NCBI GenBank assembly: GCA_964016885.1
Contig: CAXHJY010001262.1
Coordinates: forward strand, 1 to 64,000
DNA: 64,000 bases
Source of the DNA: Eledone cirrhosa
Taxonomy: Eukaryota
Reading direction: 5' to 3'
In this document: positions 55,028 through 55,669 of the stretch, piece after piece
How the letters are laid out: every line of letters begins with the position of its first letter
Position numbering within the stretch: the stretch's first letter is position 1
Made by a program: the position numbers and the translations under genes
Notes under the pieces: generated by a model
What the model saw: the letters and a program-made list of their open reading frames with translations, nothing else
Told to the model about the DNA's origin: nothing
The model's database searches: none

Positions 55028-55669
55028 AAATCCGAAAACTGGTTCCTCAAATATGAAGAAGGCTTTAAAAGGACGCACCAAACAGGTAACCCCTTTATAA
55101 AGCATTTGAACATAACAAGAACTACAACAGACACATTTACACCACCAAACCCAACACACACTAACCACAGGCACATCCCCCACCAACACAAACCAAATAC
55201 GGCCAACTACACCAAAAGAAACACACCCAACCACCACAACACAGGTTTCCGTAGAAATGCCCCCTACATAAACCAACGACGAAATAACATAGATCCAACT
55301 CACAACACACACACCACATTCCTCAGAAGAAATCCACCCAGGCCACTTGAAATCACAACAGAACTTACCCACAACCACACCAGACATCACCCTCAATCCA
55401 ACAAAAGACAACCCCCCAGCCTCAACACTCTGTACCACAGAAATAACGCACCCAGACCACATGAACCAACAACAGAACCCTTGCTCATCAACAACCACAA
55501 CACATACCACCCCCACCATCACATTCACCCTCATGAAACAACAAGCTACAGACCCACACGCAACAGACCAACAAAATATAATCACACACAAAACTACATT
55601 CCTTTTTTAGGGAAAAGCCTGAAATACCAGGATACTCGATGGCCCCCCCTCAGGAGAAACCAAAAATAA
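55028..55669 (+). CDS. 5'-truncated upstream ORF of PLE-B (Thr/His/Asn/Pro/Arg-rich), overlapping the RT ORF
   Basis: The frame is open from [31 protein letters not shown].. to ..[25 protein letters not shown] (~213 codons, not a simple repeat). It has the same A/C-rich strand bias as the RT ORF. Confidence 0.55.
55603..55609 (+). promoter_or_regulatory. Candidate -1 ribosomal frameshift slippery heptamer U_UUU_UUA
   Basis: In upstream-ORF phase (CCT TTT TTA GGG AAA). The -1 frame is open from 55582 and is the frame of the RT ATG at 55639. Confidence 0.5.

Follow-up and report, generated by a model that had tools for sequence, protein, structure and literature searches.

A candidate programmed -1 frameshift site between ORF1 and the reverse transcriptase-endonuclease of Neptune-like Penelope-like elements

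The element and its overlapping frames

The 64,000-nucleotide stretch of Eledone cirrhosa DNA analysed here (the window: assembly GCA_964016885.1, contig CAXHJY010001262.1, positions 1 to 64,000, forward strand) comes from a microsatellite-rich host genome of 3.0 Gb and carries what is, judged from its sequence, a 5'-truncated copy of a young, Neptune-like, two-gene Penelope-like retrotransposon. Its upstream open reading frame (ORF1) overlaps a reverse transcriptase (RT)-endonuclease (EN) frame, and we propose, with a probability of roughly 0.85, that the RT-endonuclease is made by programmed -1 frameshifting at a conserved U UUU UUA close to where ORF1 ends. This proposal is likely because the in-phase heptamer is conserved, RT-frame stop codons end there, a methionine before the RT and an AG at the site are mostly or often absent, and the heptamer is swapped for others in some relatives. 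The features of the element are as follows.

54170-55026, minus strand: inverted copy of the 3' pseudo-long terminal repeat (pseudo-LTR), including its microsatellite, at the truncated 5' end (blastn, 95%)
55028-55669, plus strand: 3' half of ORF1, with the end of a helical domain and then a tail rich in H, N, T, P and R; the start codon is absent from the window copy
55603-55609, plus strand: slippery heptamer T_TTT_TTA in ORF1 phase, codons Phe401-Leu402
55582-57921, plus strand: RT-endonuclease frame, -1 relative to ORF1, 779 codons from stop to stop
55618-55631, plus strand: 4-bp hairpin, a proposed stimulator, neither conserved nor above chance
55639-55642, plus strand: RT-frame ATG, overlapping the TGG that is the 11th ORF1 codon past the heptamer
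55643-55649, plus strand: run of seven C, unstable in length between copies
55667-55669, plus strand: ORF1 stop codon TAA, 19 codons past the heptamer
56854-56865, plus strand: RT catalytic motif YLDD (Pfam RVT_1, E=3.6e-7)
57517-57543, plus strand: CX4CxxC linker from RT to endonuclease, a mark of Neptune and Nematis
57631-57903, plus strand: C-terminal GIY-YIG endonuclease with two Cys between GIY and YIG (Pfam PF01541, E=7.7e-7)
57922-59354, plus strand: 3' untranslated region and pseudo-LTR with an internal microsatellite and a degenerate hammerhead-like motif, then (TA)n

The upstream frame reads CCT TTT TTA GGG, which places TTTTTTA in X_XXY_YYZ phase, and the -1 frame is closed by TAA at 55579-55581 and then open through the ATG to its end, with the upstream stop beyond the heptamer; on all of these points the first-pass annotation, which had proposed an HIV-type signal here, read the DNA correctly. 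The range it gave begins at 55028, which is no start codon; the position proved to be the joint of a truncated copy. The element breaks off at 55027, where it meets its own 3' repeat as an inverted copy (55026-54170 against 58547-59399, 95% identity by blastn), so that only residues 209-421 of the 421-residue ORF1 are left and the upstream frame holds no ATG within the window. With the ORF1 start lost, a fusion product would not be expected from this copy.

When complete, ORF1 opens at an ATG just past the pseudo-LTR and encodes 400-449 amino acids (aa), laid out as an N-terminal coiled-coil-like segment, a conserved all-helical domain and a low-complexity tail. The description of ORF1 as low-complexity in the first-pass annotation thus suits the tail and misses the first half, the conserved helical domain, which is lost from the window copy. 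The ratio of nonsynonymous to synonymous substitution (dN/dS) in the N-terminal part was 0.10-0.44 in the six unsaturated pairs of eight, in line with the protein-coding role assigned to ORF1 at the outset. The helical domain gave a confident, all-helical model (predicted local distance difference test, pLDDT, 97) with no Foldseek match at E<=0.001; sequence comparison of ORF1 matched coiled coils only, and its members had no Pfam family in common and no atlas match. A candidate fold relative (best VIA Z 9.2, root-mean-square deviation 6.4) was rejected, as such values are ordinary for helical bundles. From its segment layout, ORF1 is probably a structural or ribonucleoprotein (RNP) protein.

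Conservation of the junction

We assessed the frame offset in other copies of the window's family (family A). A DNA search gave 1,333 candidates, of which 40 were scored, all of these 99-100% identical. The junction was kept in 30/30 fetched copies, and 17 of the 30 carry the complete 421-aa ORF1 from an ATG right behind a tandem pseudo-LTR, indicating that the offset is a trait of the family and not damage to the window copy. The heptamer was likewise kept in all 30 copies picked by the ORF1 N-terminal domain alone, a set that overlaps the first 30 in part.

A junction-blind RT-motif search of the same genome returned 1,615 matches compared with 1 in a control, and its first 30 loci fell into five families (A-E) with RTs 51-59% identical to the window RT. 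In each family ORF1 ends in Phe-Leu encoded by T TTT TTA, followed by 10-23 codons, with the RT in the -1 frame. Of the 28 loci extending to the site, 25 had an intact heptamer by eye and 3 a mutated one, two further loci being truncated; family B combines a junction of constant length with a heptamer kept in 29/30 copies, and in family D the heptamer is followed by ACG in place of G. ORF1 is 421, 400, 436 and 449 aa long in families A, B, C and D, respectively. One search that presupposed TTTTTTAG served only for finding family C. Among the five, a Met precedes the conserved RT start in family A only: the K-I-I-N of that start lies at +19 to +26 codons, and the first RT-frame Met comes at +153 (B), +57 (C), +40 (D) and +58 (E). 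Conservation of the heptamer and its phase across copies and diverged families, together with a poorly conserved ATG 55639 (no Met before the RT start in 27/30 junctions), is what the initial frameshift proposal had anticipated.

Loci outside this genome gave a similar picture. An RT-only scan of metagenome contigs yielded 78 loci, 64 of which include the RT start; we counted an in-phase site as T_TTT_TTR, T_TTA_AAC or A_AAA_AAC and took the expectation from shuffles. Such a heptamer was present in 16/18 foreign loci with an ORF1 domain (1.05 expected) and in 9/21 other foreign loci (about 1 expected), and in none of the 25 single-ORF relatives in which the RT frame runs on upstream (about 1 expected). 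Alternative canonical heptamers stand in the same position, namely T_TTA_AAC in L205, A_AAA_AAC in L255, and T_TTT_TTG. Across 30 junctions, some of them near-duplicates, the 799 RT-frame codons ahead of the heptamer contained 82 stops and the 799 beyond it contained none, and the overlap itself was open, as first proposed, with 0 stops in 463 codons.

An RT tree (FastTree, 52 rows, L245 dropped) placed most two-ORF elements on one branch (support 0.85), a second small group apart from it, and the single-ORF elements separately; it held no named Neptune references, hence the label Neptune-like. Four distant loci (L252, L255, L261 and L264, 27-29% RT identity) combine a long upstream frame, unmatched by the profile of the helical ORF1, with an in-phase slip site and a stop 0-2 codons later. 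A degenerate T_TTT_CNA, which fits single-tRNA slippage only, lies at the junction of L199, L241 and L252, and L194 has one as an additional site. For L194 and L199, ORF1 again stops 10 codons past the degenerate site.

We then considered ORF1 at the protein level, where a profile search with its domain recovered 836 representative proteins, the best 150 of them all at most 553 aa long. Phe-Leu occurs within the last 38 residues of 79/102 ORF1 proteins with a tail of at least 80 aa, as opposed to 2/102 in the adjacent window of residues. The residue preceding Phe-Leu is never Q, E, K, M or W (0/81, background 0.21, P = 8e-9); since these are the residues whose codons cannot end in T, the constraint acts on nucleotides. 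The codon after Phe-Leu begins with G in 55/82 protein cases. No fused ORF1-RT protein of 686-2,000 aa was found in what was a weak search, and a search of the viral and prokaryote collections found no relative of the window RT.

Routes to the RT and the stimulus for slipping

Under programmed frameshifting, most ribosomes would stop 10-30 codons past the heptamer and release the ORF1 protein, and a few percent would slip by tandem tRNA slippage on the Phe-Leu codons, yielding a fusion of ORF1, RT and EN some 1,170 aa long. Several observations weigh against this model. ORF1 and RT are fused in frame through C-run length in 18 of 100 listed family A copies; at L004:2073, the slippery run is one T longer in a single X4 contig (depth 4.9, kind unknown); an ATG stands ahead of the conserved RT start in family A, L241, L248 and L264; an AG follows the T-run in 19/30 junctions; two of the 18 foreign loci with an ORF1 domain have only a degenerate T_TTT_C (L199, L241); and no general 3' stimulator was found, unlike most described -1 signals (PMC3458567). 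The first four of these bear on other routes to the RT.

The fused copies and the extra T could mean that the active form is a single fused ORF, supplied by rare in-frame masters or by an RNA polymerase adding U in the T-run, with no ribosomal slip. Open frames in fused copies reach 1,181 codons, and the 25 distant single-ORF loci are truly so. The fusions nevertheless stem from C-run changes of many sizes (+1, +4, +7, +10 and +16 in L065-L076, which were picked for long frames). The C-run behind the ATG varies in length and so produces all three frame relations: among 100 listed of 177 matches, 61 keep the -1 relation, against the 18 fused and 21 in the third frame. The exact -1 relation holds in 48/57 ATGG-type copies, and the ATGC-type copies (42/100 listed) are unstable and split 13/13/16 over the frames. 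This scatter looks like unselected slippage after insertion, going by the copies' sequences. Only 1/150 family B matches has an open frame of more than 700 codons, and TTTAAAC offers no long homopolymer on which to stutter. We consider a fused active form very improbable. As side observations, in the ATGC type a C replaces the G after the RT-frame ATG and the C-run is long (-1 to +21), and the extra T of the X4 contig may reflect an error, slippage by a polymerase or variation in the genome.

Marginally less credible is separate synthesis of the RT, from its own start codon or by reinitiation past the ORF1 stop. L1 ORF2 is made by AUG-independent reinitiation. The family A ATG has G at +4, and the ORF1 stop is often codon +11, where it overlaps an RT-frame NTA or NTG codon in a manner resembling stop-start coupling. 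A separate start fits poorly with the many junctions that have no Met; reinitiation would not need the stop-free RT frame upstream of the ORF1 stop and has to accommodate a stop distance that varies over 0-31 codons; and either form leaves the in-phase heptamer unexplained.

The least credible route is splicing, with TTTTTTAG as an acceptor and an intron whose removal takes out the ORF1 tail, or ORF1 altogether, so that an upstream exon continues into the RT frame: introns are indeed retained in Penelope-like elements (PMC8557442), families A and B share a donor-like CAG/GTAACC in ORF1, and family D has TCAG 6 nucleotides (nt) further on in the same phase. Against this route, AG is missing from the site in 11/30 junctions, 27/82 protein cases have after Phe-Leu a residue whose codon cannot start with G, the shared donor is phase 1 and would remain in the ORF1 frame, the required phase-2 donor scores at most 6/9 inside ORF1 with no position common to A-E, and T_TTA_AAC and A_AAA_AAC are not acceptors, nor would an acceptor need ORF1 phase. 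Four contig sets of unknown kind, compared with L004, showed no joint at the acceptor, which we counted neither way. We also noted that CAG/GTAACC at 55083-55091 and in L061, paired with the TTTTTTAG acceptor, would take the ORF1 tail (525 nt in A) out in frame and not lead into the RT.

Returning to the frameshift model, we asked what might promote the slip. The window shows no HIV-type stem-loop or pseudoknot after a 5-9 nt spacer, and its sequence downstream of the heptamer folds no better than shuffles (z=+0.07, +0.90 and -0.16). The first-pass annotation had put forward CCTG-AAATAC-CAGG (from 55618) and a TCAGG at 55650 as a possible weak stimulator; both sequences are present, and their proposed role was not borne out, as the CCTG/CAGG hairpin gave z=+0.90 and -0.16 against shuffles and the CCTGA/TCAGG pairing was rejected likewise. 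Over 29 lineages, defined as clusters at 70% RT identity, a simple heuristic found no excess of hairpins (8 compared with 7.3 expected) or pseudoknots (14 compared with 17.1). This set was chosen partly by the heptamer, and its heptamer count of 26/29 is therefore not used. Six of 33 junctions fold at z < -2, and some lineages may have a 3' stimulator. Most described -1 signals have one (PMC3458567), and U6A without a stimulator gives 4-6% -1 frameshifting in reticulocyte lysate (PMC3458567), a figure near the 5-10% cited for HIV-1 (PMC4373837). Here, the slip would likely be driven by the inherent slipperiness of U6A, not by a hairpin or pseudoknot.

The position of the ORF1 stop suggested a further, more speculative contribution. 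Slip-to-stop distances range over 0-31 codons and are most often exactly 10, about the length of one ribosome, a value found in 9/29 lineages where linker-codon shuffles predict 1.04 (P = 1e-4 when any one distance is allowed, and 0.02 with a 4-codon window). The same spacing appears in 27/81 ORF1 proteins, none of which has a shorter one, although some members may be common to the DNA and protein sets. It persists across otherwise poorly alignable tails and in the U UUA AAC lineage, and because the distance from the stop to the conserved RT start varies, the spacing appears anchored on the heptamer. A hint of 10/20/30-codon periodicity was also seen in the protein set. Ribosomes reportedly queue at about 10 codons before a stop, which is read as disomes (PMC12458181). 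Thus a ribosome queued behind one paused at the ORF1 stop would sit on U UUU UUA and be pushed into the RT frame, which may help in many relatives. If so, RT output would track ribosome density and termination speed.

We nonetheless regard it as doubtful that the terminating ribosome, in place of RNA structure, is the roadblock that drives the slip. The spacing is clustered on the tree (9 changes against 22 when shuffled), so much of it is inherited; 6/29 lineages have a distance of 0-4 codons; and the window's own young, abundant family has 19 codons, with TGG at the usual stop position, as family B likewise does with 20. Among titles and abstract openings we found no paper with the terminating ribosome itself as stimulator, and we did not find the fixed stop spacing in print.

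Neighboring sequences and comparison with known systems

Elsewhere in the element, the window RT has a 6-nt in-frame insertion at 57187-57192 relative to L066 and L068. The hammerhead-like motif (about 59173-59212) has a degenerate core by eye, with no Rfam match at E<=1 and a folding z of -0.56. Upstream of the element, 51810-53048 on the plus strand holds a broken, different Penelope-like element across three frames (RYVDD, a Cys-rich linker and YIGET, by eye), which gave no Pfam match and no tblastn match to the main RT. A minus-strand segment at 48802-49649 matches 53400-54249 at 89%, mostly through microsatellite plus some flank.

If the frameshift model is correct, a large EN-bearing group of Penelope-like elements makes its enzyme in retroviral fashion from a two-ORF message, and the real protein exceeds the one read from the RT frame by itself by about 400 aa, with consequences for annotation and for reconstituting Penelope-type transposition. 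There would also be an architectural link to two-ORF elements without an endonuclease. The uncharacterized helical ORF1 has hundreds of relatives and no Pfam family. The set provides natural -1 sites by the dozen, diverged and lacking an evident RNA stimulator, and allows testing whether ribosome collisions at stop codons can drive programmed frameshifting.

The translated endonuclease has a CxxC between its GIY and YIG motifs and His residues downstream, the trait of the CCHH type of endonuclease-containing (EN+) elements. The two-ORF elements of Fig. 1 in Craig et al. are reportedly of the endonuclease-lacking Athena type. With the Neptune clade, as described in PMC8557442 and PMC3846280, the window element shares the RT, the CX2-5CxxC linker, the C-terminal GIY-YIG with its Cys pair, tandem and inverted pseudo-LTRs, 5' truncation and (TA)n flanks. 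Its pseudo-LTRs are inverted in the window and tandem ahead of ORF1 in copy L002, arrangements already described for Penelope-like elements (PMC8557442). It differs from canonical EN+ elements, described as single-ORF (PMC8557442), in that families A-E have two overlapping frames, with a separate ORF1 of 400-450 aa overlapping the RT in the -1 frame. Killifish Neptune reportedly has two ORFs that do not overlap, and the accessible part of that report mentions no frameshift (10.1101/2025.05.22.655539), nor does that of PMC3905857.

An ORF1-RT frameshift is already in print for Penelope-like elements as a class: according to the legend to Fig. 1 of Craig et al., a frameshift that has a pseudoknot can separate off ORF1, with CC denoting coiled coil (PMC8557442). 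Those elements resemble ours in the coiled-coil-like ORF1 joined to the RT by frameshifting, and ours differ in having an endonuclease, in being spread throughout chromosomes and in showing no excess of pseudoknots. We did not find a pseudoknot-free frameshift at this breadth in EN-bearing Neptune-like elements in the open literature, although subscription papers, Repbase notes, figures and bioRxiv supplements may describe the junction.

Among frameshift signals, a close one is HIV-1 gag-pol (PMC4373837, PMC3458567), with the identical heptamer U UUU UUA, followed in family A by GGG. Unlike HIV-1, the elements described here have no stem-loop stimulator, and their zero-frame stop lies 0-31 codons on. 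For SARS-CoV-2, the influence of the zero-frame stop has been proposed to come from refolding of the pseudoknot (PMC11797035), unlike the possible collision considered here, whereas the distance at which ribosomes queue behind stops (PMC12458181) matches the 10-codon spacing from slip site to stop in these elements.
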